Below, in pieces: positions 1,221 to 60,001 of a DNA stretch of 64,000 nt. Each line of letters starts with the position of its first letter. Positions within the stretch are counted from its first letter, which is position 1. Both the position numbers and the translations under genes were made by a program. Where the stretch lies: positions 1-64,000 of the IMG/VR virus record IMGVR_UViG_3300037067_007090; one strand, given 5' to 3'. This DNA comes from a virus (taxonomy: Duplodnaviria; Caudoviricetes). The notes under the pieces were generated by a model. The model did not search any database. It worked only from the letters and a program-made list of their open reading frames with translations, and was not told where the DNA came from.

Positions 1221-2243
1221 ATGCAAATAATTGACACGCCTAAAATGAAAACCGCAATTTCCCCTAATTACAACTTCGTATTTAACAAAATCAACGGCAC
1301 ATTCCAACGATGGGGATCAACACTTGATGATGACCCAGAATATGCACCATCCCCTGAAATCGCAGATATTGAAATTTCCACAATCTGCAATCATGGATGT
1401 AAATTCTGTTACAAGTCAAACACTCACGACGGAAAATATATGAATCTCGATACTTTCAAAAAGGTTTTTGATAAACTCCCGAAAACTATCACGCAAATAG
1501 CTTTTGGGATCGGAGACATCGATGGTAATCCCGATCTCTACAAAATCATGCAATACACTCGCGCCAATGGTGTTATTCCAAATATCACAATTAACGGAGC
1601 GCGCATGACACCACACGATTATGATAAATTATCCGAATTATGTGGAGCAGTTGCTGTCTCGCTCTATGATTATAACTCCTGTCGCACTGCAATTTCCGAA
1701 CTTGGTAAGCGGGGCCTTCACCAAGTCAATATTCACTGCCTCCTTTCAGAAGAAACATTTGATAAGTGCATGGATATAGCACAGAAGGCTCACAATGACC
1801 CAACACTCAAAAAATATCTTAATGCAGTAGTATTTCTGTGGTTGAAGCCAAAGGGCAACAGAAATACATTACACTCGGTTTCTGAAGCACATTATAACGA
1901 ACTCATAAACTACCTGAAAACAAATAATGTAAGGCTTGGGTTTGACTCATGTTCAGCCCCAAAGGTAATGAATGTGATGTCAGAATGCGCAGAATATATT
2001 GAACCGTGTGAATCGACATTATTTAGCATGTACATTAACGTTGATGGTAAAGCATTCCCATGTTCATTTAGTGAAAACGAATGCGGATACACCGGAATCG
2101 ATATGCTTAATATCAATGACTTTACTACTGATGTGTGGAATAACGAACAGTATAACCGTTTTAGAAAATCGGTTATTGGAAACAAAGATAAAAATGGATG
2201 CAGGAATTGCCCGCTATTCGATCTCAAATTTGGAGGCTGTTAA
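1221..2243 (+). CDS. radical SAM enzyme with C-terminal SPASM/twitch-type Cys cluster
   Basis: CNHGCKFC (CxxxCxxC); downstream CES...YINVDGKAFPCSF...CRNCP auxiliary-cluster pattern. Confidence 0.9.
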   Translation: MQIIDTPKMKTAISPNYNFVFNKINGTFQRWGSTLDDDPEYAPSPEIADIEISTICNHGCKFCYKSNTHDGKYMNLDTFKKVFDKLPKTITQIAFGIGDIDGNPDLYKIMQYTRANGVIPNITINGARMTPHDYDKLSELCGAVAVSLYDYNSCRTAISELGKRGLHQVNIHCLLSEETFDKCMDIAQKAHNDPTLKKYLNAVVFLWLKPKGNRNTLHSVSEAHYNELINYLKTNNVRLGFDSCSAPKVMNVMSECAEYIEPCESTLFSMYINVDGKAFPCSFSENECGYTGIDMLNINDFTTDVWNNEQYNRFRKSVIGNKDKNGCRNCPLFDLKFGGC

Positions 2244-2245
2244 GT

Positions 2246-2833
2246 ATGAAAACCAGAACCGGCTTTGTATCAAACTCAAGTAGTAGTTCATTCATCGTAG
2301 GAATTGACAAAGACTGTAAAACATTTGAAGATTGGTGTGAAAATGGCCTATTTAACTGGAAAACAGAATTGATAGAAGGAGATGGTACATCAATTAACCT
2401 TGATAATATTGAAGATAAATATTCCGAATGTTTAAAAACATACCGCGAATGTCTCAAACGTATTTGGGATGATGCACATTTAAAGAAACCATGTGAATTG
2501 AACAAAGTAGAAAAATATCTGACATCTCATACCAAAGATGGGACGCAACCCGATACTTCAATGTTCACATATACCTTCGTTGATACATTCTGTGAACCAC
2601 ACAATCATGGAAATAACTTCGGAGATGCCGAACGCGAAAAAATTATAAAGAAAATGGAGACCGCTGGTAGAACATGGAACACTTTAATAGTACAATCACT
2701 TGTTCGTGAAATGGCAGATCAATATGATCTTTATATGATTTCATATTCCGATAACGACGGAGAATTTATGAACCAAATGGAACACGGGGATCATTGGAAG
2801 ATGATTCCATGTATTATAATTTCAAATCATTGA
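2246..2833 (+). CDS. NSSS-tag protein 1 (MKTRTGFVSNSSSSSF...), unknown function
   Basis: ATG at 2246 with GGAGG at 2232-2236; shared N-terminal motif; ends EHGDHW...ISNH. Confidence 0.85.
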   Translation: MKTRTGFVSNSSSSSFIVGIDKDCKTFEDWCENGLFNWKTELIEGDGTSINLDNIEDKYSECLKTYRECLKRIWDDAHLKKPCELNKVEKYLTSHTKDGTQPDTSMFTYTFVDTFCEPHNHGNNFGDAEREKIIKKMETAGRTWNTLIVQSLVREMADQYDLYMISYSDNDGEFMNQMEHGDHWKMIPCIIISNH

Positions 2834-2843
2834 GGTGGTTAAA

Positions 2844-3089
2844 ATGAAAACAAGAAACGGATTTGTAAGTAATTCAAGTAGTAGTTCATTCATTATATGC
2901 AAAAATCTTTTGACTGAATGGCAAATTGAAGCTATAAAAAATCACACACCTTCAGACGAATACAGCAGATGGTATATAAGTGAAGATGATATCTATATAT
3001 ACGGATCTACCAGTATGGATAATTTCAACATGTATGATTTTTTATGTAAAATTGGGGTTAATCAAAATATTATAAAATGGGGGGATTAA
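2844..3089 (+). CDS. NSSS-tag protein 2 (MKTRNGFVSNSSSSSF...)
   Basis: ATG at 2844 after GAGGTGG RBS; shared motif. Confidence 0.85.
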   Translation: MKTRNGFVSNSSSSSFIICKNLLTEWQIEAIKNHTPSDEYSRWYISEDDIYIYGSTSMDNFNMYDFLCKIGVNQNIIKWGD

Positions 3090-3323
3090 ATGAAAACACG
3101 ACTTGGATTTGTAAGTAACAGTTCGTCAACATCATTTTATTGCCCAATATGTAACAGAGAATTTTCGGGGTGGGATTGGGATGAAGACCCCGTTTGCCCA
3201 AATTGCGGAATTCACATTCGTAAAATAACACAATCTTTGAATGAATACATTTGTGAAAAATATAATCTTAATTTAGAAGAAGAGATTAACAACTATAAGG
3301 AGAAATGCAAATATGAAAATTAG
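3090..3323 (+). CDS. NSSS-tag protein 3 (MKTRLGFVSNSSSTSF...) with Zn ribbon
   Basis: Shared motif followed by CPIC...CPNC. Confidence 0.85.
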   Translation: MKTRLGFVSNSSSTSFYCPICNREFSGWDWDEDPVCPNCGIHIRKITQSLNEYICEKYNLNLEEEINNYKEKCKYEN

Positions 3324-3651
3324 AATGGGTTTCGTAAGTAACAGTTCATCATCGTCGTTCCTTATTGTGGGAATGATTATTGATGAAATTCCAAAAGAAT
3401 ATGAAGACGATTATGATTGGCTCGAAAGTATGCAGAAAAAACACACTGAACTTACCGATTTCGAAATGCACTATCCCTATGAAGGTGATAGTGGGTGCTA
3501 TATTGGTGTAAGTTACGACAAAATGGGGATGGATGAAACGAAACGCGCATTCTTATCTAGAGTACAAAATGGTTGTAACATCATTTGTAATAATTTTAAA
3601 ATTGATCCTATCATGGTTGAAACGCTTGAAGCTGCATGGAGGGATGACTAA
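3313..3651 (+). CDS. NSSS-tag protein 4 (MKIRMGFVSNSSSSSF...)
   Basis: Shared motif; overlaps the previous ORF. Confidence 0.85.
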   Translation: MKIRMGFVSNSSSSSFLIVGMIIDEIPKEYEDDYDWLESMQKKHTELTDFEMHYPYEGDSGCYIGVSYDKMGMDETKRAFLSRVQNGCNIICNNFKIDPIMVETLEAAWRDD

Positions 3652-3887
3652 TGAAAATCAGATTGGGATTTGTTTCTAATTCAAGTTCTTCATCTTTTTG
3701 TGTAGATAAAGACAAAATACCCGATGAAGAATTTTTCAGAACAATGATTGAACAACACAACAATAGTGAAGATGAAGGACATATTGTTGAAGGAATATAT
3801 CATTGGTTTGGAAGGATAGATCAAAGTGATAAAGCAATTAGGAAATATTTAAATTCACATAAAATATTTTATGAGGATGTATCATAA
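3651..3887 (+). CDS. NSSS-tag protein 5 (MKIRLGFVSNSSSSSF...)
   Basis: Shared motif; TAATG coupling on both sides. Confidence 0.85.
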   Translation: MKIRLGFVSNSSSSSFCVDKDKIPDEEFFRTMIEQHNNSEDEGHIVEGIYHWFGRIDQSDKAIRKYLNSHKIFYEDVS

Positions 3888-4637
3888 TGCCCACCTACTT
3901 CACCCTACCCGAAGCTAAAACAAAAATCAATCACCACGTCAAAGCACTAGCCCCATTCGATAATATTAATATCGGTGACTATGGCATCATTACTTCATAC
4001 TACAAAATAGGTGGTCTCTATGGATTGAATGTCAAATGGGATCACATTAATATCGTGGATGGGTTTTCAAAGAGTTATTATGAGAGGTTTTTGGAGGAGG
4101 TTTGAAATACCACGCCTTTTCAAGAAAGAAATAACGAGATGTGCGCATTGCCCCAATTGCGCTAGTTATGCGGCAGATCGGTTTTATTGTAAAATGCACA
4201 CGAAAAAATATGCTAATATACGTAATAACGAAGATTATCATCTTATACCCGATATTCGTGGTGAGATACCGGGATGGTGTGAGTTGGAAAAATTAAGAAA
4301 ATGAAAGAGTAATTTATTTATACTTCCACAACCAATACATTTTATGCAAATCTTAACACCCGATGTATCGCCGGAAGATTTCGACCGGTTCAAAGGACTG
4401 CTTTTTGAACACCTGCATGTGCGCGACGCGCGGCTTAATAACGAACCTACGTTTATCAATGATTGTGATTCCACACTTCGGCTCACGCGGAATATCCTCA
4501 AAGCACACTTTCCAGAATACGACACGGCGGGAACGATTTCATATTTCGAGAAGATGATGTGGGGTTGTGATTGTCAGGTTTTTTATGAGTCGCCGGATAT
4601 TTGTGATGAATGTAGGGAGAGGATGGAGAAGGATTGA
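3887..4637 (+). CDS. three small hypothetical ORFs (3887-4105, about 4102-4304, about 4301-4637)
   Basis: Coupled stops/starts; starts of the last two appear shifted by single homopolymer indels. Confidence 0.45.
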
Positions 4638-4728: not shown

Positions 4729-5934
4729 ATGCCTTCTTGGAAACACCCTCTTGGAATTAATGTTCTTGAAGCAGCGCAACAAAGAATTTCTTGGACATTT
4801 GATACCTTTCCAAAGATTTGTGTAAGTTTTTCCGGGGGGAAAGATTCTACTGTAATGTTACATCTTGTAGCAACAGAAGCAAAAAAACGTAATCGTAAGT
4901 TCGCCGTTCTTTTTGTAGATTGGGAGGCGCAATATAAATACACAATAGATCACGTATCAGAAATGTTCACTCTTTACGAAGATCTCATAATCCCTTTCTG
5001 GATCTCACTCCCTTTAAAAACCGTTAATGCTGTTTCCCAATTTGAACCGGAGTGGATTTCGTGGGAGCCAGATAAGGAAAGTTTGTGGGTGAGACAACCA
5101 CCATCTATTGCTATAACTGACCCTGCGATGCTACCATTCTATTCTTACGCCATGACATTCGAAGAGTTTGTTCCATCATTCCTTCAATGGTATTCTAATG
5201 GGACTCCGACTGCTTCATTCGTAGGTATTCGTACGCGCGAATCATTAAACAGATGGAGAACAATAGGAGCAGGAAAGAAACATTCTTACGATAATAAATG
5301 CTATACCACAGTCGATAAAAGTGTTTGTAACATATTCCCAATCTACGATTGGACTGTAGATGATATATGGACATTCCACGGCAGAACAAATCTTCCGTAT
5401 AATAAACTCTATGATCAAATGGCGCGTGCTGGTGTGCCTCTCCATAAGATGCGAATATGCGAACCATATGGCCCGGAACAGCGACAAGGATTGTGGTTAT
5501 TTCATGCAATTGAACCAGATACTTGGGGGAAAGTTGTCGCGCGCGTGAATGGAGCAAATATGGGATCCATTTATGCAAATGAAAAAGGTAATGTATTAGG
5601 AATCAATCAAATTGTTTTACCGACGGAGCATACTTGGAAATCATTCGCTACACACCTTCTTGATTCAATGCCCACAAAAACATCGGAACATTATAAAAAC
5701 AAAATCGCTGTTTACTTGAAGTGGTATCAAGATAAAGGTATTACAATACCTGATACACAACCCAAAGATTGTGGAAGTTCTGATAATCATCCATCGTGGA
5801 AACGAATATGTAAGACCATTCTCCGGAATGATTTTTGGTGCAGAACACTTTCTTTCGCACCAACAAAAACATCAGCATATGAAAAATATTTAAAATTAAT
5901 GAAAATAAGGAGAGAAAAATGGGATCTGATTTAA
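4729..5934 (+). CDS. ibrA: PAPS-reductase-like PP-loop protein (IbrA/YbdN, DUF3440-type)
   Basis: SFSGGKDS PP-loop, VGIRTRESLNRW, PIYDW, MRICEPYG, C-terminal WKRICKTILRNDFWC. Confidence 0.85.
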   Translation: MPSWKHPLGINVLEAAQQRISWTFDTFPKICVSFSGGKDSTVMLHLVATEAKKRNRKFAVLFVDWEAQYKYTIDHVSEMFTLYEDLIIPFWISLPLKTVNAVSQFEPEWISWEPDKESLWVRQPPSIAITDPAMLPFYSYAMTFEEFVPSFLQWYSNGTPTASFVGIRTRESLNRWRTIGAGKKHSYDNKCYTTVDKSVCNIFPIYDWTVDDIWTFHGRTNLPYNKLYDQMARAGVPLHKMRICEPYGPEQRQGLWLFHAIEPDTWGKVVARVNGANMGSIYANEKGNVLGINQIVLPTEHTWKSFATHLLDSMPTKTSEHYKNKIAVYLKWYQDKGITIPDTQPKDCGSSDNHPSWKRICKTILRNDFWCRTLSFAPTKTSAYEKYLKLMKIRREKWDLI

Positions 5935-6560
5935 TCGAAAAAACAAAAGAAATATCAAAAGAACTATCTGAATATTCAGAGTCGGAACAATTGTTTTTAC
6001 TCAATCAAATACGAACAATTCTTCACGAAACAAGTCCAATGAAAAATGAACCGGTTGATCTTGTGTTATGGGTCAAATCTGAAACAGTGGGAAAAAACGA
6101 TTATAACCCAAATACCGTTGCACCCCCGGAGATGAAATTACTTGAAACTTCAATCATAGAAGATGGATATACGCAACCGGTAGTTTCTTGGAAAACGAAC
6201 AATATTTTTGAAGTTGTTGATGGATTCCACAGAACAAGAGTAGGAAAGGAAAGCAAAGATGTCATTACACGTACACATGGATATTTACCCATTGTTAAAG
6301 TCAATCAAGAACGAACTGATCGTAATGATCGTATGGCTTCCACAATCAGGCACAACCGCGCGCGGGGGAAGCATATCGTATCGGGTATGAGCGAAATCGT
6401 ACAAGAACTAGCACATCGCAGATGGAGTAACGAGAAGATTGGTCATGAACTGGGGATGGAACCCGATGAAGTGTTACGGTTAAAACAAGTAATGGGTCTT
6501 GCAGATTTATATAAAGAACGGGAATTTTCAGAAGCGTGGGAAGCGAAAGAACAAATTTAA
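5919..6560 (+). CDS. ibrB: ParB/Srx-like protein (IbrB/YbdM)
   Basis: NDYNPNTVAPPEMKLL...VVDGFHR...STIRHNRARGKH; directly follows the IbrA-like gene. Confidence 0.85.
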   Translation: MGSDLIEKTKEISKELSEYSESEQLFLLNQIRTILHETSPMKNEPVDLVLWVKSETVGKNDYNPNTVAPPEMKLLETSIIEDGYTQPVVSWKTNNIFEVVDGFHRTRVGKESKDVITRTHGYLPIVKVNQERTDRNDRMASTIRHNRARGKHIVSGMSEIVQELAHRRWSNEKIGHELGMEPDEVLRLKQVMGLADLYKEREFSEAWEAKEQI

Positions 6561-6574
6561 AAAGGAGTATTAAA

Positions 6575-7303
6575 ATGCCACTACAAAAAGGTACGGAAAG
6601 ATACAGATTGTGGAAAGAACACATTGATGAGGCTGCTGATAAAAGGAAAAATATTCCATTATCCCCAGAACATTGTGAAAAAATAAGCGAGTCTAATAAA
6701 GGACGTATAAAATCTAAAGAAGAATGCGAACATATTAGCAAGGGGCTTAAAAACAAACCCAAGACACCGGAACATCGTAAGCATTTAAGTGAGGCCAATA
6801 TGGGAAAAACGTCTCCAAGGAAAGGTGTAAAATTATCTGATGCAACAAAAGAAAAGATTCGAGTGTCGAAACTTGGAATGAAATCATCTTTAGAAACATG
6901 CGAAAAAATAAGTGAATCTTTAATAGGAAATACCAGAACACTTGGTTATGTCCATTCTGATGAAACCAAAATTAAGATGAGAAAATCAGCACATCGTGGA
7001 CCCGACCATCCCAATTATAGAGGGGGGATAACCGCACTTGATAAAGCAATACGAAGACTTCCTGAATATGATACTTGGAAATATGGTGTATTTGAACGAG
7101 ATGATTACACCTGTAGAGAATGTGGGAAACGCGGGGGAGATATGGAAAGTCACCACGATAGAAAAACATTTGCTCAAATTATAAAAGATAATAATATTAG
7201 AACTATCGAAGACGCATTAAATTGTAAAGAACTATGGGACATTGATAACGGAGTTACATTGTGTGTTGATTGCCACGACAAAAGACACACGAAGAAAGAA
7301 TAG
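6575..7303 (+). CDS. NUMOD3-repeat HNH homing endonuclease
   Basis: Repeated K(I/L)SESxKG units; C-terminal RDDYTCREC...SHH...NGVTLCVDCH; AGGAG RBS before ATG 6575. Confidence 0.85.
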   Translation: MPLQKGTERYRLWKEHIDEAADKRKNIPLSPEHCEKISESNKGRIKSKEECEHISKGLKNKPKTPEHRKHLSEANMGKTSPRKGVKLSDATKEKIRVSKLGMKSSLETCEKISESLIGNTRTLGYVHSDETKIKMRKSAHRGPDHPNYRGGITALDKAIRRLPEYDTWKYGVFERDDYTCRECGKRGGDMESHHDRKTFAQIIKDNNIRTIEDALNCKELWDIDNGVTLCVDCHDKRHTKKE

Positions 7304-7305
7304 AT

Positions 7306-8001
7306 ATGCCACCACCGAAAGATCCGGAAAAATATGCTGCATGGATAGAAAAACAAAGATTATCCCATATAGGGAAACATGCATCACAATCCACCACTGA
7401 TAAAATGATCGCGTCACATAAAGGTCTAATTCCTTGGAATAAAGGTGTGCCTTCAACAGAAGTATCCAAGCATAACCAAAGTATCGCATTAAAAAACAAA
7501 CCGAAACCCCCACGAACAAAAGAACATTGTGAAAATATAAGCAAATCAAAAATGGGAAAAAACAATCCGATGTTTGGAGAACATCATACATTTGACGCAC
7601 ATATAAAAATGCACAACGCGCAATTGGGGAATACTAAAAAACTTGGATATCATTTCCCGTTAGAAACTAGAATAGGAATGAGTGAAGAAAATAGAGGAGA
7701 AAATGCATCCCGATGGGAAGGTGGGATAACTCCATTGAATAAAATGATCCGTGAGTCGTGGGAATATAGAGAATGGGTAATTGCCGTTTTCATTAGAGAT
7801 AATTATACTTGCCAAAAATGCAAAACGCGCGGTGGGTATTTAGAAGCACACCACATAAAACTATTTTCTTTGATTTTAAAAGAATATAATATATTAACAC
7901 TGGAAGATGCAAAGAATTGTAAAGAATTGTGGGACATAGATAATGGTATAACATATTGTGTAGATTGTCACAAAGACATACATTTCAAAAATAATAAATA
8001 A
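7306..8001 (+). CDS. NUMOD3-repeat HNH homing endonuclease
   Basis: PWNKG/NPMFG NUMOD units; RDNYTCQKC...EAHHIK...NGITYCVDCH. Confidence 0.85.
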   Translation: MPPPKDPEKYAAWIEKQRLSHIGKHASQSTTDKMIASHKGLIPWNKGVPSTEVSKHNQSIALKNKPKPPRTKEHCENISKSKMGKNNPMFGEHHTFDAHIKMHNAQLGNTKKLGYHFPLETRIGMSEENRGENASRWEGGITPLNKMIRESWEYREWVIAVFIRDNYTCQKCKTRGGYLEAHHIKLFSLILKEYNILTLEDAKNCKELWDIDNGITYCVDCHKDIHFKNNK

Positions 8002-8002
8002 C

Positions 8003-8866
8003 ATGCCTCCTCCGAAAGATCCAAAAAAATACGACGAGTGGATAAGAAAAAACAGCGAAGCACATAAAAATAAACATCCGTCTGAAGAAACACGAAATAA
8101 ATTAAAAGGAAGAAACCCGTGGAATAAAGGAATACCATTATCAGAAGAAGCAAAACAAAAATTGAGTGAATCTTGTAAAGGTAGAATCCCTTGGAATAAA
8201 GGTGTCCCTCATAAACAAGAATCTAAAAATAAAATGAGCATAAAGAAAAAAGGTATCCCATTATCAGAAGAACATAAAAAACATTTATCCGAATCTCACA
8301 AAGGATTAAAGCCAAACGTGACTCCGGAATCTATAGAAAAAAATCGTATTGCTCATCTTGGTAAAAAGGCATCGGAAGAAACAAAAGAAAAGATGAGTAT
8401 ATCACATAAAGGAAAATCTTCGTGGAATAAAGGAATTAAAACTCCGATAGAAATTAGAAATAAAATGAGCAAATCGATGAAAGGAATAAAAAAGTCTGAT
8501 GGATTTAGAAAAAATATGAGTGGTGAAAACAATCTTAACTGGAAAGGTGGTATTACAGAATTGGATAAAGCAATCCGTGCATTACCGGAAATGTTCGAGT
8601 GGAGAAGAAAAGTTTTTGAACGCGACCATTATAGAGATTGTTTTACAGGAAGTCTTGGAAATCACAATATCGAAGCGCATCATATTGTCGCGGTATCTTT
8701 AATTATGGAAAGATTTAATATAACTTCGATAGAAGATGCTTTAAATTGTGAAGATATGTGGAATATAGATAACGGAGTAACAATGTTTAAAAATTCACAT
8801 ATTGAGCATCACAAAAAATACAAATTACAAATATTACCAAAAGAATATTATTTTAAAAACCAATAA
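8003..8866 (+). CDS. NUMOD3-repeat HNH endonuclease, Zn-ligand-less variant
   Basis: Multiple PWNKGxP.SEE repeats; RDHYRDCFTG...EAHH...NGVTMFKNSH. Confidence 0.8.
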   Translation: MPPPKDPKKYDEWIRKNSEAHKNKHPSEETRNKLKGRNPWNKGIPLSEEAKQKLSESCKGRIPWNKGVPHKQESKNKMSIKKKGIPLSEEHKKHLSESHKGLKPNVTPESIEKNRIAHLGKKASEETKEKMSISHKGKSSWNKGIKTPIEIRNKMSKSMKGIKKSDGFRKNMSGENNLNWKGGITELDKAIRALPEMFEWRRKVFERDHYRDCFTGSLGNHNIEAHHIVAVSLIMERFNITSIEDALNCEDMWNIDNGVTMFKNSHIEHHKKYKLQILPKEYYFKNQ

Positions 8867-9761: not shown

Positions 9762-9860
9762 AAGCGGTTTGGAAATTTATTAATCTTTTTTAATTACCCT
9801 TTGTGTACACCAAACATAACCACTGTGTTAATGTTGGTGTATGGAAGGGGGATTTTTAAT

Positions 9861-9939
9861 AGGTCTGGCCGGAGTTGAACCGGCTTACACATAGACCGTG
9901 TTTGAGACGGTTCCATAGCCGTTCTGGATACACAGACCC
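9861..9939 (-). tRNA. tRNA-Leu(CAA)
   Basis: Cloverleaf: ACCGT-CTCAAAC-ACGGT anticodon arm, GCCGG-TTCAACT-CCGGC T arm, extended variable region; no encoded CCA. Confidence 0.8.
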
Positions 9940-9942
9940 AAA

Positions 9943-10025
9943 TGAGTGATGCCGGATGCGCGCCGGCGATGTTTCCTTGTACGGAGTCTAAATCCGGTGA
10001 AGTCGGCTTCTGTTCCAATCACTCT
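9943..10025 (-). tRNA. tRNA-Leu(TAG), degenerate T loop
   Basis: GAGTGAT/ATCACTC acceptor, CGGA-TTTAGAC-TCCG anticodon arm, T loop CGCGCAT instead of TTCRANY. Confidence 0.55.
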
Positions 10026-10043
10026 CGATTTCCCACAATGGGA

Positions 10044-10129
10044 TGCGTCCGTCAGGATTTGAACCTGAAATGTTTCGCTTCGTCACAGTGTTTAAGACTG
10101 TTGCGTTCAACCGTTTCGCCACGGACGCG
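10044..10129 (-). tRNA. tRNA-Leu(TAA)
   Basis: ACAGT-CTTAAAC-ACTGT, long variable arm, TCAGG-TTCAAAT-CCTGA. Confidence 0.85.
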
Positions 10130-10130
10130 A

Positions 10131-10216
10131 TGTGTGAAGCAAGATTTGAACTTGCGTCGTTTCCTTGTCTGGAACCTCGATCCAGTGGAGTCAACCGTGC
10201 TGTCCCATTCACACAT
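10131..10216 (-). tRNA. tRNA-Leu(GAG), C33
   Basis: CTGGA-TCGAGGT-TCCAG, long variable arm, GCAAG-TTCAAAT-CTTGC. Confidence 0.7.
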
Positions 10217-10263
10217 AACTTATATGTTTTCAAATCATTTATACTTTCCCCTATGTAAGAGGA

Positions 10264-10348
10264 CGCCAACGACAGGAATTGAACCTGCAACCCTGTTAAG
10301 GGCGACGGTTTTCAGGACCGTTTAGCGCACCGCACTCCCCACGTTGGC
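10264..10348 (-). tRNA. tRNA-Ser(TGA), C33
   Basis: ACGGT-CCTGAAA-ACCGT, variable stem CCCT/AGGG, T loop TTCAATT. Confidence 0.7.
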
Positions 10349-10357
10349 AATAATATG

Positions 10358-10433
10358 AGCCGGATGAGAGAATTGAACTCCCGCCCTTTCGATTACAGAT
10401 CGAATGCACCAAACCAACAGATGCTTATCCGGC
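10358..10433 (-). tRNA. tRNA-Thr(TGT), C33
   Basis: GCCGGAT/ATCCGGC acceptor, TTCGA-TCTGTAA-TCGAA, short variable loop, U73; a Tyr(GTA) reading would need a 1-nt shift. Confidence 0.65.
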
Positions 10434-10435
10434 GA

Positions 10436-10523
10436 CGCTGCCTGAAAGATTTGAACTTTCGTTTCCGATCAGGAAAGCAACTTTAGCAGAATTGCGGCAT
10501 AAACCAGACTCGCCCAAGGCAGC
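10436..10523 (-). tRNA. tRNA-Ser(GCT)
   Basis: GCTGCCT/AGGCAGC acceptor, CAATT-CTGCTAA-AGTTG, long variable arm. Confidence 0.85.
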
Positions 10524-10675
10524 AAGATGAAACCAATACAAAACACCCTCACGATGTGGTGAGAAGCGTCAAACTGGACAGTAAACGCAATGATAGAATA
10601 GATGTTGATACGTTTATATTTACTGTCATGATATATAATAGTGTATGTTGTAATAGTATTTAAATATTTCTACAA

Positions 10676-10757
10676 TTGGTGGAGAGGGATTTGAACCCTC
10701 GAAGCACTAAACACCGGATTTTGAATCCGGCCCCTTTGACCGCTCGGGTATCCACCA
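10676..10757 (-). tRNA. tRNA-Leu(CAA), second copy
   Basis: CCC-GAGCGGTCAAA-GGG D arm, CCGGA-TTCAAAA-TCCGG, GAGGG-TTCAAAT-CCCTC; own TATA upstream. Confidence 0.85.
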
Positions 10758-10887: not shown

Positions 10888-13800
10888 CTAAAAACCCCAC
10901 TTCCCCAACGTCGGAGTCGCCGGGTCAAACTCGCACCAGTTGAAATTCAACGGTTCCATAATCCGTGATAACGGAGTCTTTAAAGTCTTCTCTAACATTG
11001 TATCAACATCAACTATAAAAATGTTTCTATCTATTTGATCCGCATACTCAAAACAAACTACATCCGTGCGCGGATATTTTGAAGTAACATTCTTAATATA
11101 TAAACGTTTCGGTTTTGACCCCTTACCAAAATTCGTTCCCAGATAAGTGTTAGAATACACCGCCGCGCGCACCTGCGCATCTTGGATATCATATTCTTCC
11201 AATGGTTTACCAATGCCGCCGGGAATTCCTACATCGTCGAGACTATATTTACCCGCGCGGTATTTACGTATAACATCCGAAATAGTAGTTCTGATTTCTT
11301 CATAAGGTTTGCCCTCAAGAACCATCTCGATAAGTGTTTTCATTGCGTCACGTGTGACCTTGGGGGAATCCGACCGCTTGGTTTCAAAACCCACAATATC
11401 AATTTTATGCGCGTCTACACCTTCCTTCCAAATAAGGAGTCCAGCGTATCGCTTCTTCTTCCCGCCGCTAAAAAATCTCTGGTATAATTTTTCAAATTTC
11501 ACGGAGAAATATTGAACATCGGCATTTAATGTTTCTTTTGCAAACTGTGGATATGAGTTATTAAGAAGCGTTTCAAGTTCCTTCGCAATAAACATAGTTC
11601 CTTCTTTCCCAATACTTTTTGGTATCTTTATACCAACCGAATCGGTATCACCAAAAACAATTTTATATTCTTCGTGTTCTACAAGTTTTTTGTTGTGCTC
11701 CAAAAGCGCGCGCCCTACTGATGTAATAGCCGAACCCACGTCACGGTCATTAAGACGGAACATCGGATTTGCCGAAACCCCATAATAAGAATTCATGCAA
11801 ACCTTAACCACGTCCTGTTTCATATTTAAAAGTTTATACTCACGAGAATCAAAAGGATACTTATTCCGTTCCTTTTTCATCTCATCTCGTTCACGTAAAA
11901 ATTTCGCCTGAATCTTTCTAACCAATCCATCGGGTTCTTTTTTAAATCTGACACCATTAGGAGCGCGCAGTTCTCCTTTTGGATCTTTGGTTTCTGGAGA
12001 TGCATTAATAGTCATCATCGACATTGGATACAATGATTTAGCATCCAAAACAGCAACGTTTTCTTGCACTCCGCGCATGGGAGCAATAACCGTAGCCCCT
12101 TCAAACGATTCTTGTGTATTTATAGAATTTGCCTTTGAAGGTAAAATAAACCCATTTTCTTTTGCTTCTCTCAAAACCAACATATCAATAATAGGCATAC
12201 TATTTGTTGTCTTTTCCAGAGGACACCCGGCATAATGAGCAACATACCTGTGGAATTCAACAGTTTCGTCTTTTGCATTAATACCTACACATAATTCCAC
12301 ATCAGTGAAGTTATAGTAAACCAGATTGGTAGGATCTTCTTTCCATAAATCGAAAACCTTTCCATTGTGATGGATTTTTTGTTTCCCCAATTCTTCTAAT
12401 GCTATTGCATCAAGGCGATAAGAAGGTTGTTCACCCAAATGCATTCTTTTATACCCGGATAATAAATCAAAAAGTTGACGACCTTTGATTTCTATGCGCC
12501 CGGTGTTTCCACTAGGCAACCGCGACCACGCATCGCGCGGGATACCTAATACATCCATACGACCCAGAATGTAAGGTATATCAAATTCATTACAATTATG
12601 TACAACGCAACCAATCGAAAAATTATGTTCTGTCGTTTCAATATCGTAGCAATTTTTAGGCACGTCGTTACTTACATTTTTTACCCGCAGATACATATTA
12701 GTTAGATTTCTATTAAAATTAAATCTGAAATGATCTTTCCTAGTAACTCGTTTTCTCTTAATTATATGGATTTTATTTTTTATTTTCTTCTGCAAAAACT
12801 TTTTCATACACTCTAATAGTTTTTGGGTTATACATAAGATCCGTAAATTTATATTACATGTAGATGAAGTTATCGCACCAAATCCTGCAAATAACTGAAA
12901 ATGCCGAATATTAATAGTATGATCTCCTATACAAAAGACATCTGAATACCCATCGCCATCATACCATCCAGCTAAAAAAGCCCCGAACTCTTCTACAGAT
13001 AGACGAGATAATAAACCAAAATTGAGTTGTTTCTTATCACCAACCAGAATGAGATGTTCTGCCCCTTTTAGATCTCGCTGCAATATATTAGAACACCAGA
13101 CACCTTTTGTAAACCATCTATGGTTTTCCCCGCAACATCTATTAATGAGGTTTATATTTTTATTGTAAAATCTAAATCTCCACTTATCTGGTCTGGCGCC
13201 ATCGGAATAAATAAGTCCAGCCCTGTAACAATTAAAAGGATCAAGCCCGAGACCAATATTATTTTCATACTGCCGTATTGGAATATGCAATATACTATCA
13301 GAAGTTATATTTTTAGAAATTTCGTATGTTGGTTCATAGTTTTCGCAATGTTCCCACACATAATGACGATCTTGTGGAATTTGAGAAACTAACATTCGAT
13401 GATCTTCCCCAACAATAAAATCCCATCCAATAGATGTTCTTATACGAGTTGTATTCTTAACCCCCGTATTATAAACGGATACAACTTTTCCACCTGTGTT
13501 TAAAACAATACCCGGTATTAATGCCTTAATTGGTATAAGACCGTTTTTTGTGTCAACCATTGTATCTTCTGGAACGCAGTTCCACCCCGTAATAATATCC
13601 GGATCTGTGGATTTGATATATTCACAAAAATCCACAAGAAGAGATTTTTCATCCGTGTATGTTATAACGTCGTGGTGAGCGGGATCAAAGCACCCGTTCT
13701 CTTTAGGTGTTTCTATAAGAGGTGAAGTAGCGACAACAAATGTAATATAACGATTTGTAAAACTATCATGACAAGTAATGCAAAAAATTGGATCTTTCGT

Positions 13801-14259
13801 TGCATCCGGGAACCCGCGTTCATCAGAACATTCAATATCCACAATACAAACGCGCGCGGGATAGTTTAAATCTTTGAATAATATGTCGTCAATCGTGCAT
13901 GGTGATTGTGTATAAGAGAAACCAGATTTTATTTTTGTATCAATCAGAAACCTCAATGTGTATAAAATATCCGCTTCATAGTGTTTAGAAAACTTCTCGC
14001 GCGATTCAAAAATGTCACCGGGTTTTTGAGTAATGACTTTCACCAAAGGTTCATGGAGAATGGAAAAATATTCATTTGAATCAACTTCGGAGGGTGGTGT
14101 TGCTTTGGGGGATTCTGATGCGGGAACAAAAAAATAAGGTTTGAAACCAACCACATCCACACGATGAGAAACACCGGAGGAGTCACGACCGAAGATGTTA
14201 ATGACAGGAGAGTTGTTATGGAAGGAGTATTCGGCTTGAGTTAAGCAGAGATCAGGCAT
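10888..14259 (-). CDS. polB: family B DNA polymerase (archaeal type) with one intein
   Basis: Exo I DIEC, Exo II GWN..FD, Exo III YNFTD; DAKSLYPMS, KVCMNSYYG, FGDTDS, KKRYAG. Confidence 0.95.
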   Translation of the reverse strand: MPDLCLTQAEYSFHNNSPVINIFGRDSSGVSHRVDVVGFKPYFFVPASESPKATPPSEVDSNEYFSILHEPLVKVITQKPGDIFESREKFSKHYEADILYTLRFLIDTKIKSGFSYTQSPCTIDDILFKDLNYPARVCIVDIECSDERGFPDATKDPIFCITCHDSFTNRYITFVVATSPLIETPKENGCFDPAHHDVITYTDEKSLLVDFCEYIKSTDPDIITGWNCVPEDTMVDTKNGLIPIKALIPGIVLNTGGKVVSVYNTGVKNTTRIRTSIGWDFIVGEDHRMLVSQIPQDRHYVWEHCENYEPTYEISKNITSDSILHIPIRQYENNIGLGLDPFNCYRAGLIYSDGARPDKWRFRFYNKNINLINRCCGENHRWFTKGVWCSNILQRDLKGAEHLILVGDKKQLNFGLLSRLSVEEFGAFLAGWYDGDGYSDVFCIGDHTINIRHFQLFAGFGAITSSTCNINLRILCITQKLLECMKKFLQKKIKNKIHIIKRKRVTRKDHFRFNFNRNLTNMYLRVKNVSNDVPKNCYDIETTEHNFSIGCVVHNCNEFDIPYILGRMDVLGIPRDAWSRLPSGNTGRIEIKGRQLFDLLSGYKRMHLGEQPSYRLDAIALEELGKQKIHHNGKVFDLWKEDPTNLVYYNFTDVELCVGINAKDETVEFHRYVAHYAGCPLEKTTNSMPIIDMLVLREAKENGFILPSKANSINTQESFEGATVIAPMRGVQENVAVLDAKSLYPMSMMTINASPETKDPKGELRAPNGVRFKKEPDGLVRKIQAKFLRERDEMKKERNKYPFDSREYKLLNMKQDVVKVCMNSYYGVSANPMFRLNDRDVGSAITSVGRALLEHNKKLVEHEEYKIVFGDTDSVGIKIPKSIGKEGTMFIAKELETLLNNSYPQFAKETLNADVQYFSVKFEKLYQRFFSGGKKKRYAGLLIWKEGVDAHKIDIVGFETKRSDSPKVTRDAMKTLIEMVLEGKPYEEIRTTISDVIRKYRAGKYSLDDVGIPGGIGKPLEEYDIQDAQVRAAVYSNTYLGTNFGKGSKPKRLYIKNVTSKYPRTDVVCFEYADQIDRNIFIVDVDTMLEKTLKTPLSRIMEPLNFNWCEFDPATPTLGKWGF
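12595..13578 (-). mobile_element. LAGLIDADG intein (328 aa) in the PolB Exo II motif
   Basis: GWN|CVPEDT...CVVHN|CNEFD; internal RAGLIYSDG and LAGWYDGDG motifs. Confidence 0.92.
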
Positions 14260-49951: not shown

Positions 49952-51055
49952 TCATTTCCCCGACTTCGTTCTATTATGGTGCATACAAAGCATCTGACAA
50001 TTATCTTCTACCGATTTTCCACCTTTTACCCACGGAACAATATGATCCGCTTCCATCTCTTCAAACTCATAATGTTTAGAGGGATCACATATAGGGCATA
50101 TACCTTTTTGTCTTTCATATACTTTTGTTGTGATTTTTTCATCAAAGGTTCGTAAGTTTAAAGACGACTGATCTTTTTCTCCACTCAACAGGAATTTATA
50201 AATACCTTTTTTATTTCCCACTTCATCGTCATCCATAAGTTCTTTGATGCGATCTTCCATAATAGAGGGGGTGTATTTAAAATCCTTATATTTATTATAG
50301 AATATACCCCATTCTAACCCTTTCATTTCTTTTCTATAATTTGAAAATATTGCTTTCACCCAATTAATAACCCCTTGGAAATATAACCACATTTCATTGG
50401 CATTAGTATCATGCTGGTGGATTGACATATAGTCTTCTATCCCAATACCGTCTCTTTCAGAAATCCATTTTATAGCGGTTTCCAAATAATCTTGTCTTAT
50501 AGACGAACCCACCAAATATTTACTTGCAATATCGTGAGCAGGGCACATATTTTTTGAAAAATATTTTTTAGCGTCAGAAAGCCACTCTCCCGTATAAGTG
50601 GCATTCCGCAATTCTTGATCAGTGAGTTTGATACCTGCTATATTTATAATTTTAAACCAATCTAACTTCTCCTTATCATTGCCTTGACAAATATAAATCA
50701 TCAATTTATAATTTAATATTTGTTCCTTTTCCACATCTGTGAGATTGTGAAAAAACATACAATCTACTGAAAAATCACCATTAATATATTGGCAAATACT
50801 CACTGTTCTTTGCTGACCATCAAGCAATTCATATGTGCCATTATTATTAACTACCCAATACATAATATTTAATGGGAACCCTTTAACAATTGTTTTAATA
50901 ACTTCGTTTCTTTGATTAACATTATAAACAAATTCTCTTTGAAATGGTGGGCGAATATTTAGTTTACCATTATATCCAAATGCCCCATTTTCAACATCAT
51001 CCACATATCCTTCTGATATTTCTTTAATAGGTATTTCTTTTAGTATTATTTTCAT
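49952..51055 (-). CDS. DUF262 (GmrSD-like) + HNH restriction endonuclease
   Basis: IRPPFQREFVY, LLDGQQRT, NIAG, C-terminal CPIC...EADHI.PW.KGG...NCQMLC. Confidence 0.85.
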   Translation of the reverse strand: MKIILKEIPIKEISEGYVDDVENGAFGYNGKLNIRPPFQREFVYNVNQRNEVIKTIVKGFPLNIMYWVVNNNGTYELLDGQQRTVSICQYINGDFSVDCMFFHNLTDVEKEQILNYKLMIYICQGNDKEKLDWFKIINIAGIKLTDQELRNATYTGEWLSDAKKYFSKNMCPAHDIASKYLVGSSIRQDYLETAIKWISERDGIGIEDYMSIHQHDTNANEMWLYFQGVINWVKAIFSNYRKEMKGLEWGIFYNKYKDFKYTPSIMEDRIKELMDDDEVGNKKGIYKFLLSGEKDQSSLNLRTFDEKITTKVYERQKGICPICDPSKHYEFEEMEADHIVPWVKGGKSVEDNCQMLCMHHNRTKSGK

Positions 51056-59747: not shown

Positions 59748-59820
59748 GTTCGCATAGCACAATTGGTAGTGCGTCGGGATTGCAATCCGAAGGTTGGGGG
59801 TTCAACTCCCCCTGCGAACT
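59748..59820 (+). tRNA. tRNA with TGC anticodon (nominally Ala) lacking G3:U70
   Basis: GTTCGCA/TGCGAAC acceptor, GCAC D stem, TCGGG-ATTGCAA-TCCGA, GGGGG-TTCAACT-CCCCC; TATA at 59711-59728. Confidence 0.75.
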
Positions 59821-60001
59821 CCTTCATCTTGTGTTCCGCATACACATGAAACCTGCGGTGGAGTTCGCAATAAAATTGGGCATCTCGCGGTTCATATCCG
59901 TGTGATGCTCTTATCAAGTGCACGAAAATAGATAAAATCGTGCATTATAATGTTTGGAGTGCACGAAACTTTTAAATACTATAAAATAGAATTAACAGAG
60001 A

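Follow-up and report, generated by a model that had tools for sequence, protein, structure and literature searches.

A radical SAM enzyme and a shared N-terminal tag: a candidate two-component protein-modification system of large phages

Radical S-adenosylmethionine (SAM) enzymes that carry a SPASM domain typically modify peptides or proteins. A gene for such an enzyme stands near the start of the stretch of DNA considered here, positions 1 to 64,000 of the IMG/VR virus record IMGVR_UViG_3300037067_007090 (the whole of these 64,000 nucleotides (nt) is meant by 'the window'), and it is directly followed by five genes whose products, otherwise unrelated, open with one 16-residue tag. The reading we favour, at a probability of roughly 0.55, is that one enzyme covalently modifies the common N-terminal tag of many small acidic phage proteins, here called its clients and, for those of the window, numbered 1 to 5 in array order. 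Enzyme and clients would then form a two-component protein-modification system of large phages, with one radical SAM enzyme for a variable complement of small proteins, mostly acidic, that have nothing in common but the N-terminal tag M-K-x-R-x-G-F-V-S-N-S-S-S-S-S-F.

Relatives of the enzyme and of the arrangement

The nearest printed analogue is at the other end of its proteins. FxSxx-COOH peptides and the radical SAM/SPASM enzyme FxsB belong to conflict systems of actinobacteria (Kaur et al. 2020, PMC7159879), where the motif is C-terminal, release is by a zincin peptidase and the setting is one of vWA/AP-ATPase systems (PMC7159879). Variable small proteins, a short common motif and a radical SAM/SPASM enzyme alongside are features of both cases. 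Motif position, partner genes and hosts differ, however: the present tag is strictly N-terminal and phage-borne, no recurrent peptidase goes with it, and the enzyme has no match to the NCBIfam FxsB family.

By structure the best neighbours are maturases of peptides made by ribosomes and modified after translation (RiPPs). The AlphaFold2 (AF2) model of the enzyme, with a predicted local distance difference test score (pLDDT) of 90.6, has the alternating strand-helix pattern expected for a partial barrel, and the solved folds nearest to it are those of SuiB (5V1T, with SuiA), SkfB (6EFN), CteB (5WHY/5WGG), TigE (8VPO), at template modelling scores (by query) of 0.55-0.73, and of anSME, all of them SPASM/twitch enzymes that modify peptides or proteins and all at identities of 10-15%. 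Likeness to the maturases extends to the radical SAM core and the CX12GX4C auxiliary-cluster motif, to a predicted peptide path through the barrel opening with pairing to an enzyme beta-strand, and to the possession of several precursors with a conserved N-terminal sequence per enzyme. Yet, the low identity apart, no curated maturase family is reached, there is no match to a PqqD-type RiPP recognition element (RRE), and neither a protease nor an exporter recurs. The substrates here would be proteins of 77-280 amino acids (aa) with folds of their own rather than short peptides, the cross-links known so far would find no Cys, Lys or Trp in the tag, and its conserved piece appears to be the modification site rather than a leader for a variable core.

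A second comparison is with anSME/AtsB (4K36-4K39), also radical SAM enzymes, whose substrates are entire proteins, modified before folding at a short Ser/Cys motif close to the N-terminus; for a Ser-rich tag, oxidation of a Ser side chain would be a fitting reaction, and the only match of the family profile in the PDB (E 5e-4) is to the twitch domain of the dehydrogenase BtrN (4M7T). In contrast to anSME substrates, the tag is without the sulfatase motif (C/S)-x-P-x-R, the clients are not sulfatases (no sulfatase domain was found in 131 representatives), and the enzyme has no NCBIfam anSME match. A SPASM domain has CX9-15GX4C, CX2CX5CX3C and a last Cys, and holds two clusters; a twitch domain has only the first part and one cluster. 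The present enzyme has an invariant C263-x12-G-x4-C281 and a second cysteine run reduced to C327-x2-C330, a CX2C in place of the SPASM CX2CX5CX3C, and by this pattern its C-terminal domain appears to be intermediate between twitch and SPASM.

In triceptides the cross-link goes to the beta carbon of residue 3. Triceptide cyclophane synthases act on aromatic-X-X motifs (PMC11499958), to which F7-V8-S9 of the tag would conform, and where position 7 varies it is mostly to H, W or Y; position 9, though, is Gly in some genomes and so without a beta carbon, and no NCBIfam XyeB, GrrM or FxsB match is found. The radical SAM enzyme of phage thymidine hypermodification (M6 gp53, PMC8989533) is SPL-like and unrelated.

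That the gene encodes a radical SAM enzyme with a SPASM-type tail, as an earlier preliminary description made from the sequence alone had it, agrees with Pfam, with both Radical_SAM (PF04055; 2.5e-11, 44.5 bits against a cut-off of 29.5) and SPASM (PF13186; 2.6e-8, 34.5 bits against 21.5) above their curated cut-offs; TIGR04085, at 24.9 bits, stays under its cut-off of 27. The closest phage family is phrog_7293, of unassigned function (1.3e-85, positions 18-361 of 384). No curated NCBIfam family is reached, the sequence itself has no PDB match, and PADLOC finds only the generic similarity of a radical SAM core to viperins. The enzyme belongs to a large family, with 3,777 clusters at 90% identity (E <= 1e-10). 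In an alignment of 30 members the SAM-cluster motif C56-x3-C60-x2-C63 is invariant, as are C141, C154, C183, C244 and C330, and the window enzyme keeps all 60 invariant columns.

Conservation of the tag and its linkage to the enzyme

All five clients of the window open with MK[TI]RxGFVSNSSS[ST]SF, with 13 of the first 16 residues invariant among them (M1, K2, R4, G6, F7, V8, S9, N10, S11, S12, S13, S15 and F16). A degenerate pattern back-translated from GFVSNSSSSSF has five matches in the window and none in 100 dinucleotide-preserving shuffles, and the 1.27-Mb assembly has no copies of the tag beyond these five, which directly follow the enzyme. Is the array just a 48-nt segment that was lately duplicated or spread by gene conversion, or a conserved 5' RNA element? 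The tandem arrangement would be in keeping with that, and the tags of clients 1 and 2 (genes starting at 2246 and 2844) share 41 of 48 nt. The other pairs, however, share 26-36 nt, and across the whole range of 26-41 nt and of 5-12 identical third codon positions out of 16, the residues remain identical at 13-15 of 16 positions. Moreover the Ser before Asn is encoded, in array order, by TCA, AGT, AGT, AGT and TCT, the switching between TCN and AGY codons that the preliminary description had given as its ground for conservation at the protein level. Since residues are kept while nucleotides and Ser codons diverge, selection acts on the peptide rather than on DNA or RNA; with the tag in about 26,000 protein clusters besides, recent copying or an RNA element is scarcely credible, and as a DNA-copying artefact the array is ruled out by the codon data.

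Which residues matter most can be seen from a relaxed census of 490 proteins, for which at least 9 of 12 informative positions were required. N10 and S11 are present in all 490, S12 in 489, R4 in 488, K2 in 483, S9 in 479 (otherwise Ala in six and Gly in five) and F7 in 475 (otherwise His in six, Trp in five, Tyr in three and Met in one). Position 16 is F or Y only, positions 17-18 are mostly hydrophobic, positions 3, 5 and 14 are free, and G6 gives way to S, Y, F, N, K, A or C. Not every conserved position can be essential, since S9 may be Ala or Gly and G6 varies. The tag is strictly N-terminal, with a Met exactly five residues ahead of Gly6 in 289 of 295 distinct tagged proteins. Eight proteins of the representative library (P0121-P0127 and P0131) have two copies each, in P0131 of the variant DFVTNSS both times; as the internal copy has its own Met or Val start, the doubling most likely reflects adjacent genes that gene callers joined, or readthrough of a stop.

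Among 1.84 billion representatives, a profile search recovered the tag in 25,971 clusters (E <= 0.001; tag-bearing clusters defined at 50% identity). No function is assigned to it in Pfam, NCBIfam, PHROGs or PADLOC, and full-text literature searches on the motif and on phage radical SAM systems returned nothing relevant, so that the statement in the preliminary description that no assigned function was known for it still holds. Variants are shared within a genome: GWVG occurs in four of four tags of locus L165, SFVA in four of four of L125, and [FY]FVS in three of three of L136/L168, with L153/L154 having three GHVS and one CHVS. Such concerted variation is what a single genome-specific reader would produce.

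Does the tag keep company with the enzyme elsewhere? The examination of co-occurrence that had been proposed shows the two to be linked in both directions, and tag-bearing proteins are not usually without this enzyme clade. The clade is within 10 kb in 47 of 64 tag-seeded IMG/VR loci. Fourteen of the remaining contigs were searched whole, and three of these, including both that are at least 90% complete, have the enzyme elsewhere; the other 11 are only 6-79% complete. (Four randomly taken tag-bearing representatives sit on contigs of 0.7-2.3 kb, too short for a test of linkage.) Starting from the enzyme, strict tags are within 10 kb in 67 of 80 loci and tag variants in four more (71/80); these loci came from an alignment-based scan, a single-sequence search having given one locus only. 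All strict tags of a tag-seeded locus are on one strand and the enzyme, where present, is on the same strand; the arrays, of up to 13 strict tags, usually begin just downstream of it. The base rate of the enzyme, by comparison, is low, with matches in 187 of 50,697 GenBank phage records, nearly all of them T4-like phages of enterobacteria. The linkage holds in phages of 40-550 kb with otherwise unrelated flanks, and the linked enzymes are 32-56% identical to the window copy.

Conserved synteny does not account for the linkage, since among 2,885 open reading frames (ORFs) at 81 enzyme loci the only families present in more than 11 loci are the enzyme and families of tagged clients; the commonest untagged neighbours, IMPDH, NUDIX and dUTPase, are each in at most 11. 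No protease, exporter or transporter, structural gene or other recurrent partner was found at these loci, and that no other family travels with the pair implies a system of two components.

Such company bears on the idea that the tag serves as a signal for sorting, assembly or stability (for capsid or injection targeting, as a degron or for protection) and that its link to the enzyme is indirect. T4-type phages have a hyperplastic cassette of small, unrelated internal proteins with one common N-terminal targeting peptide, the enzyme clade occurs in T4-like phages, and the clients, too, are small and acidic and undergo rapid exchange. Two canonical tagged genes of Cronobacter phage GAP161, GAP161_106 and GAP161_111, at 66 and 70 kb, do not adjoin the enzyme, at 90 kb; all three are among small leftward genes. 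However, the sequences differ from those of the T4 internal proteins, the tag has no evident prohead-protease cleavage motif and it is linked to a radical SAM gene rather than to head genes. Neither a protease nor a conserved structural gene accompanies the tags, two-way linkage across phages of such different size and flanks is hard to square with an indirect association, enzymes at loci lacking a nearby tag still retain the residues predicted to contact it, and the predicted complex is specific. We regard a sorting signal as a distinctly improbable explanation.

Predicted capture of the tag and a proposed reaction

Co-folding, as had been proposed, was done with the enzyme (a 30-row alignment), tag residues 1-40 (a 131-row alignment), SAM, two 4Fe-4S clusters and three controls. 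The enzyme-tag complex scored 0.87 and the best control 0.01; 58 of 80 solved complexes attain this mark, as do 2 of 110 mismatched pairs. Runs share at least 82% of contacts, with a partner pLDDT of at least 49, and the predicted interface consists of tag residues 1-19 exactly, inside the enzyme barrel. Enzyme strand 25-31 is predicted to pair with tag residues 2-6 and F7 to contact N121, C141-A143 and Q168, with the rest of the tag lining residues 92-96, 168-172, 201-206, 238-246, 256-265 and 281-283, which are barrel strand ends and auxiliary-cluster cysteines. Conservation of 85% or more among 110 enzymes is found at 34 of the 53 residues predicted to make contact, as against 38 of the 287 others.

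The clients have in common little but what the barrel is predicted to hold. With the tags removed, the five bodies of the window fall into five separate BLAST clusters, in keeping with the earlier assertion that the proteins (77-195 aa) are otherwise unrelated, and 412 distinct clients make 130 clusters, 96 of them singletons, with a median length of 129 aa (up to 279) and a median isoelectric point (pI) of 4.7. Only 3 of 131 representatives have a Pfam match, and conserved columns among these 131 are confined to tag positions. Any common modification site must therefore lie in the tag, the bodies sharing no conserved column. A tag that is a shared recognition or modification site for one radical SAM enzyme with interchangeable clients, as first put forward in the preliminary description, finds support in the two-way linkage, the unrelated bodies and the modelled complex.

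It is fair to ask whether the enzyme need touch the tag chemically at all. As a docking or leader peptide, the tag could bring a variable body to the enzyme for modification, or the enzyme could hold or regulate the clients, or be regulated by them; linkage and predicted binding would fit equally well, and RiPP systems in which one maturase serves many precursors do have conserved leaders and variable cores. Yet there is no residue common to the bodies as a target, the AF2 model has only about 45 residues (four short beta-strands) ahead of the cluster motif, and no PqqD-type RRE domain is among the enzyme's Pfam matches; with no common target offered and no RRE, leader-only recognition is less likely. 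The predicted pose, moreover, has the tag in the barrel beside the SAM-binding strands and the auxiliary-cluster cysteines, and the invariant N10-S11-S12 resembles a reaction centre more than a handle. Docking without modification of the tag is, on balance, unlikely.

What of the clients' own folding? The AF2 model of client 2 (pLDDT 79) is a small alpha/beta fold in which residues 1-11, at below 50, are a free tail and residues 13-19 the first strand; a search of this fold against the PDB gave nothing with E below 0.001. Perhaps, then, the tag is intrinsic to the clients, a first strand with a Ser-rich ligand loop or a self-processing site (pyruvoyl or N-O shift), and the enzyme has another substrate. 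Residues 13-19 as a predicted first strand and the hydrophobic positions that follow the tag would agree with this, and other proteins are known to cleave themselves at Asn-Ser and Ser-Ser bonds. However, the bodies are so diverse, with their 130 clusters and a 77-aa client whose zinc ribbon follows the tag at once, that a common fold or ligand site is unlikely; the disordered residues 1-11 of the client 2 model do not suit it, and linkage to the enzyme and concerted variants within a genome would be left unexplained. An intrinsic element is thus very improbable, and the concern that the tag is merely the first strand of a fold common to all five clients does not hold.

On the favoured reading, covalent modification of the tag, the sequence of events may be envisaged as follows. 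The N-terminal beta-strand of the enzyme (25-31) would capture tag residues 2-6 by strand addition and Phe7 would plug into the barrel against N121, C141-A143 and Q168, placing Asn10-Ser11-Ser12 in a polar channel of the active site, with the SAM cluster on one side and the auxiliary cluster on the other, where a 5'-deoxyadenosyl radical would take a hydrogen from one of these three. The outcome would be a small covalent change, most likely a loss of 2 Da, either by conversion of a Ser side chain to an aldehyde in the manner of anSME and BtrN or by a cross-link within the tag. The change would precede packing of the first beta-strand of the client (tag 13-19), since it is these residues that form it; anSME likewise acts on unfolded sulfatases. 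All clients of one phage would in this way get the same chemical mark. Two other chemistries were considered and ruled out, a glycyl-radical site at G6 by the replacements found there, and a sactionine-type thioether by the want of a conserved Cys in the tag.

Several points weigh against covalent modification of the tag. That a covalent change takes place is itself a proposal, as are the site, timing and purpose put forward for it, and the chemistry is a guess. The score of the complex is the model's own confidence and may draw on solved complexes of RiPP maturases with peptides, and its alignments and added ligands differ from the conditions of calibration. Tag variants and contact residues do not covary significantly, with 2.2 deviations per enzyme as against 1.5 (n=5). 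With tag 13-19 predicted to be the first client strand, the N-terminus would have to be unfolded when the enzyme acts. No tag lies within 10 kb at nine of 80 enzyme loci, a 261-kb contig (79% complete) has tags and no enzyme, and in GAP161 the tagged genes are about 20 kb away from the enzyme. The Ala and Gly allowed at S9 and the tolerance at G6 in the census of 490 belong here too.

The locus, its genome and what the system may mean

The six ORFs of the locus, the radical SAM gene and then five tagged genes, were verified on the + strand (Table 1). Adjacency of the array to the stop of the radical SAM gene stands as previously described; the gap given then, 3 nt, does not, and measures 2 nt. 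From the radical SAM gene onward the spacings are +2, +10, 0, -11, -1 and -1 nt, the last leading to an untagged ORF that prolongs the operon, and each start has a GGAGG-like Shine-Dalgarno sequence 5-10 nt upstream. Neither sigma-70 promoters, with 28 sites where 20.7 +/- 5 are expected, nor terminators, with 5 where 2.8 are, gave a usable operon boundary when scanned for.

Table 1. Genes of the radical SAM operon and their positions in the window
Feature	Position	Strand	Remarks
Radical SAM enzyme with C-terminal SPASM/twitch-type auxiliary cluster domain	1221..2243	+	340 aa; proposed reader and modifier of the tag
Tagged client 1	2246..2833	+	195 aa; pI 5.1; N-terminus MKTRTGFVSNSSSSSF
Tagged client 2	2844..3089	+	81 aa; pI 4.9; conserved MDNFDM motif; recurrent tagged family
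Tagged client 3	3090..3323	+	77 aa; pI 5.1; CxxC...CxxC zinc ribbon directly after the tag
Tagged client 4	3313..3651	+	112 aa; pI 4.5; recurrent tagged family
Tagged client 5	3651..3887	+	78 aa; pI 5.4
Untagged ORF	3887..4105	+	72 aa; 1-nt overlap with client 5; same operon; no family match (Pfam, PHROGs, PADLOC)

All five window clients are acidic (pI 4.5-5.4), and four of the five bodies are not orphans. Clients 1, 2 and 4 belong to recurrent tagged families with 9, 22 and 16 BLAST matches, the 9 of client 1 in viral contigs; several of the 16 tagged relatives of client 4 align over its residues 1-111. Client 5 is 83% identical to a 78-aa tagged protein of locus L175, whose radical SAM enzyme is 87% identical to that of the window. 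The body of client 3 is a singleton in the sample, and its Pfam zinc-ribbon matches are weak and all under cut-offs. Client 1 has no Pfam or NCBIfam family for its body and, as neighbours in the ESM Atlas, viral hypothetical proteins. Four of the clients match phrog_7397, of unassigned function, over its first 18-34 positions only, the tag of client 1 aligning to positions 1-29 (8.4e-9). A tblastn search of GenBank phages with one client gave no match, probably by reason of a low-complexity filter and divergent bodies.

Turnover of clients is evident from loci with closely related enzymes, the 87%-identical enzyme having two clients and a 72%-identical one, at locus L176, four, which lie 3 kb downstream of it. 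Between that enzyme and its four tagged genes (L176 9362-12181) are genes for a vWA protein, a PP2C phosphatase and a Ser/Thr kinase; the kinase/phosphatase pair thus adjoins genes with a Ser-rich tag.

The window lies in an 87.8-kb contig (C3) that was binned in a bacterial metagenome-assembled genome (MAG), of whose tetranucleotide usage it is an outlier (r 0.86 against about 0.99 for core contigs). The window encodes a family-B DNA polymerase (PolB), a primase-polymerase, a helicase, methylases, glycosyltransferases, eight tRNAs and several HNH proteins. Where does it belong? The 16S of the assembly is bacterial and the genes of the operon have Shine-Dalgarno sites; the closest relatives of the PolB are in haloarchaeal tailed viruses (31-33% identity), and the nearest genomic relatives of the enzyme are in archaeal MAGs, some of them with tags. 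No virion hallmark gene was found among the ORFs scanned, and megablast of the first 12 kb against phages gave no match. In the same assembly (G000), C3, C13 (which has a second DNA polymerase), C27 and C35 are tetranucleotide outliers at the GC content of the MAG core and may represent one or more mobile elements or mis-binned viruses; C25 (53% GC) and C31 (64.5% GC) have the look of contamination.

An overlapping pair of genes (4729-6560, +), which lies downstream of the tagged array by about 0.8 kb, encodes a PAPS-reductase/DUF3440 protein (401 aa; DUF3440 9e-37; phrog_2302) and a ParB-like protein (213 aa; phrog_2159), which we take to resemble an IbrA/IbrB-type pair. Three consecutive paralogues of 243-287 aa come next (6536-8866, +), with lysine-rich repeats in their N-terminal halves and Cys/His-rich C-terminal ends, two of them judged by eye; the third (8003-8866) matches NUMOD3 (6e-17) and, weakly and under cut-off, HNH_2, and the three look like a tandem array of homing-endonuclease-like genes. 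On the opposite strand a cluster of seven tRNA genes (9860-10757, -) is made up of Leu (four), Ser (two) and Thr, with a tRNA-Ala apart at 59748-59822 (+); Ser, decoded by two of the cluster, is the dominant residue of the tag. The PolB (10888-14259, -; 1,123 aa) is always matched in phage databases in two pieces that cover about 70% of the query, which suggests that it carries a large insertion, possibly an intein. A protein with GmrSD-N and HNH domains (49952-51055, -) is a type IV restriction-like nuclease.

What might a phage gain from marking so many proteins alike? The position of their genes makes the clients probably early host-directed proteins. A more far-reaching proposal, one we put forward tentatively and would not yet bet on, is that phages, and possibly archaeal viruses, practise a general form of protein marking, in which a single radical SAM enzyme modifies N10-S11-S12 and so furnishes a common chemical handle that the effectors need for their action on the host. 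In that case the chemistry would be of a new kind for radical SAM enzymes, with folded proteins as substrates.

About 26,000 tagged protein clusters and thousands of enzyme variants have been on deposit without a function in any of the annotation resources consulted, and the system is carried by cultured T4-like phages of E. coli, Klebsiella, Cronobacter and Citrobacter, which makes it directly testable. If the reading is true, there is here a new radical SAM reaction on protein substrates, and a portable pair of 16-residue tag and enzyme, compact enough to be of use in protein engineering. A sequence rule of one line would then single out, from among unannotated phage proteins, a very large group with a joint action, and would serve as a marker for a huge class of effectors in phage 'dark matter'.

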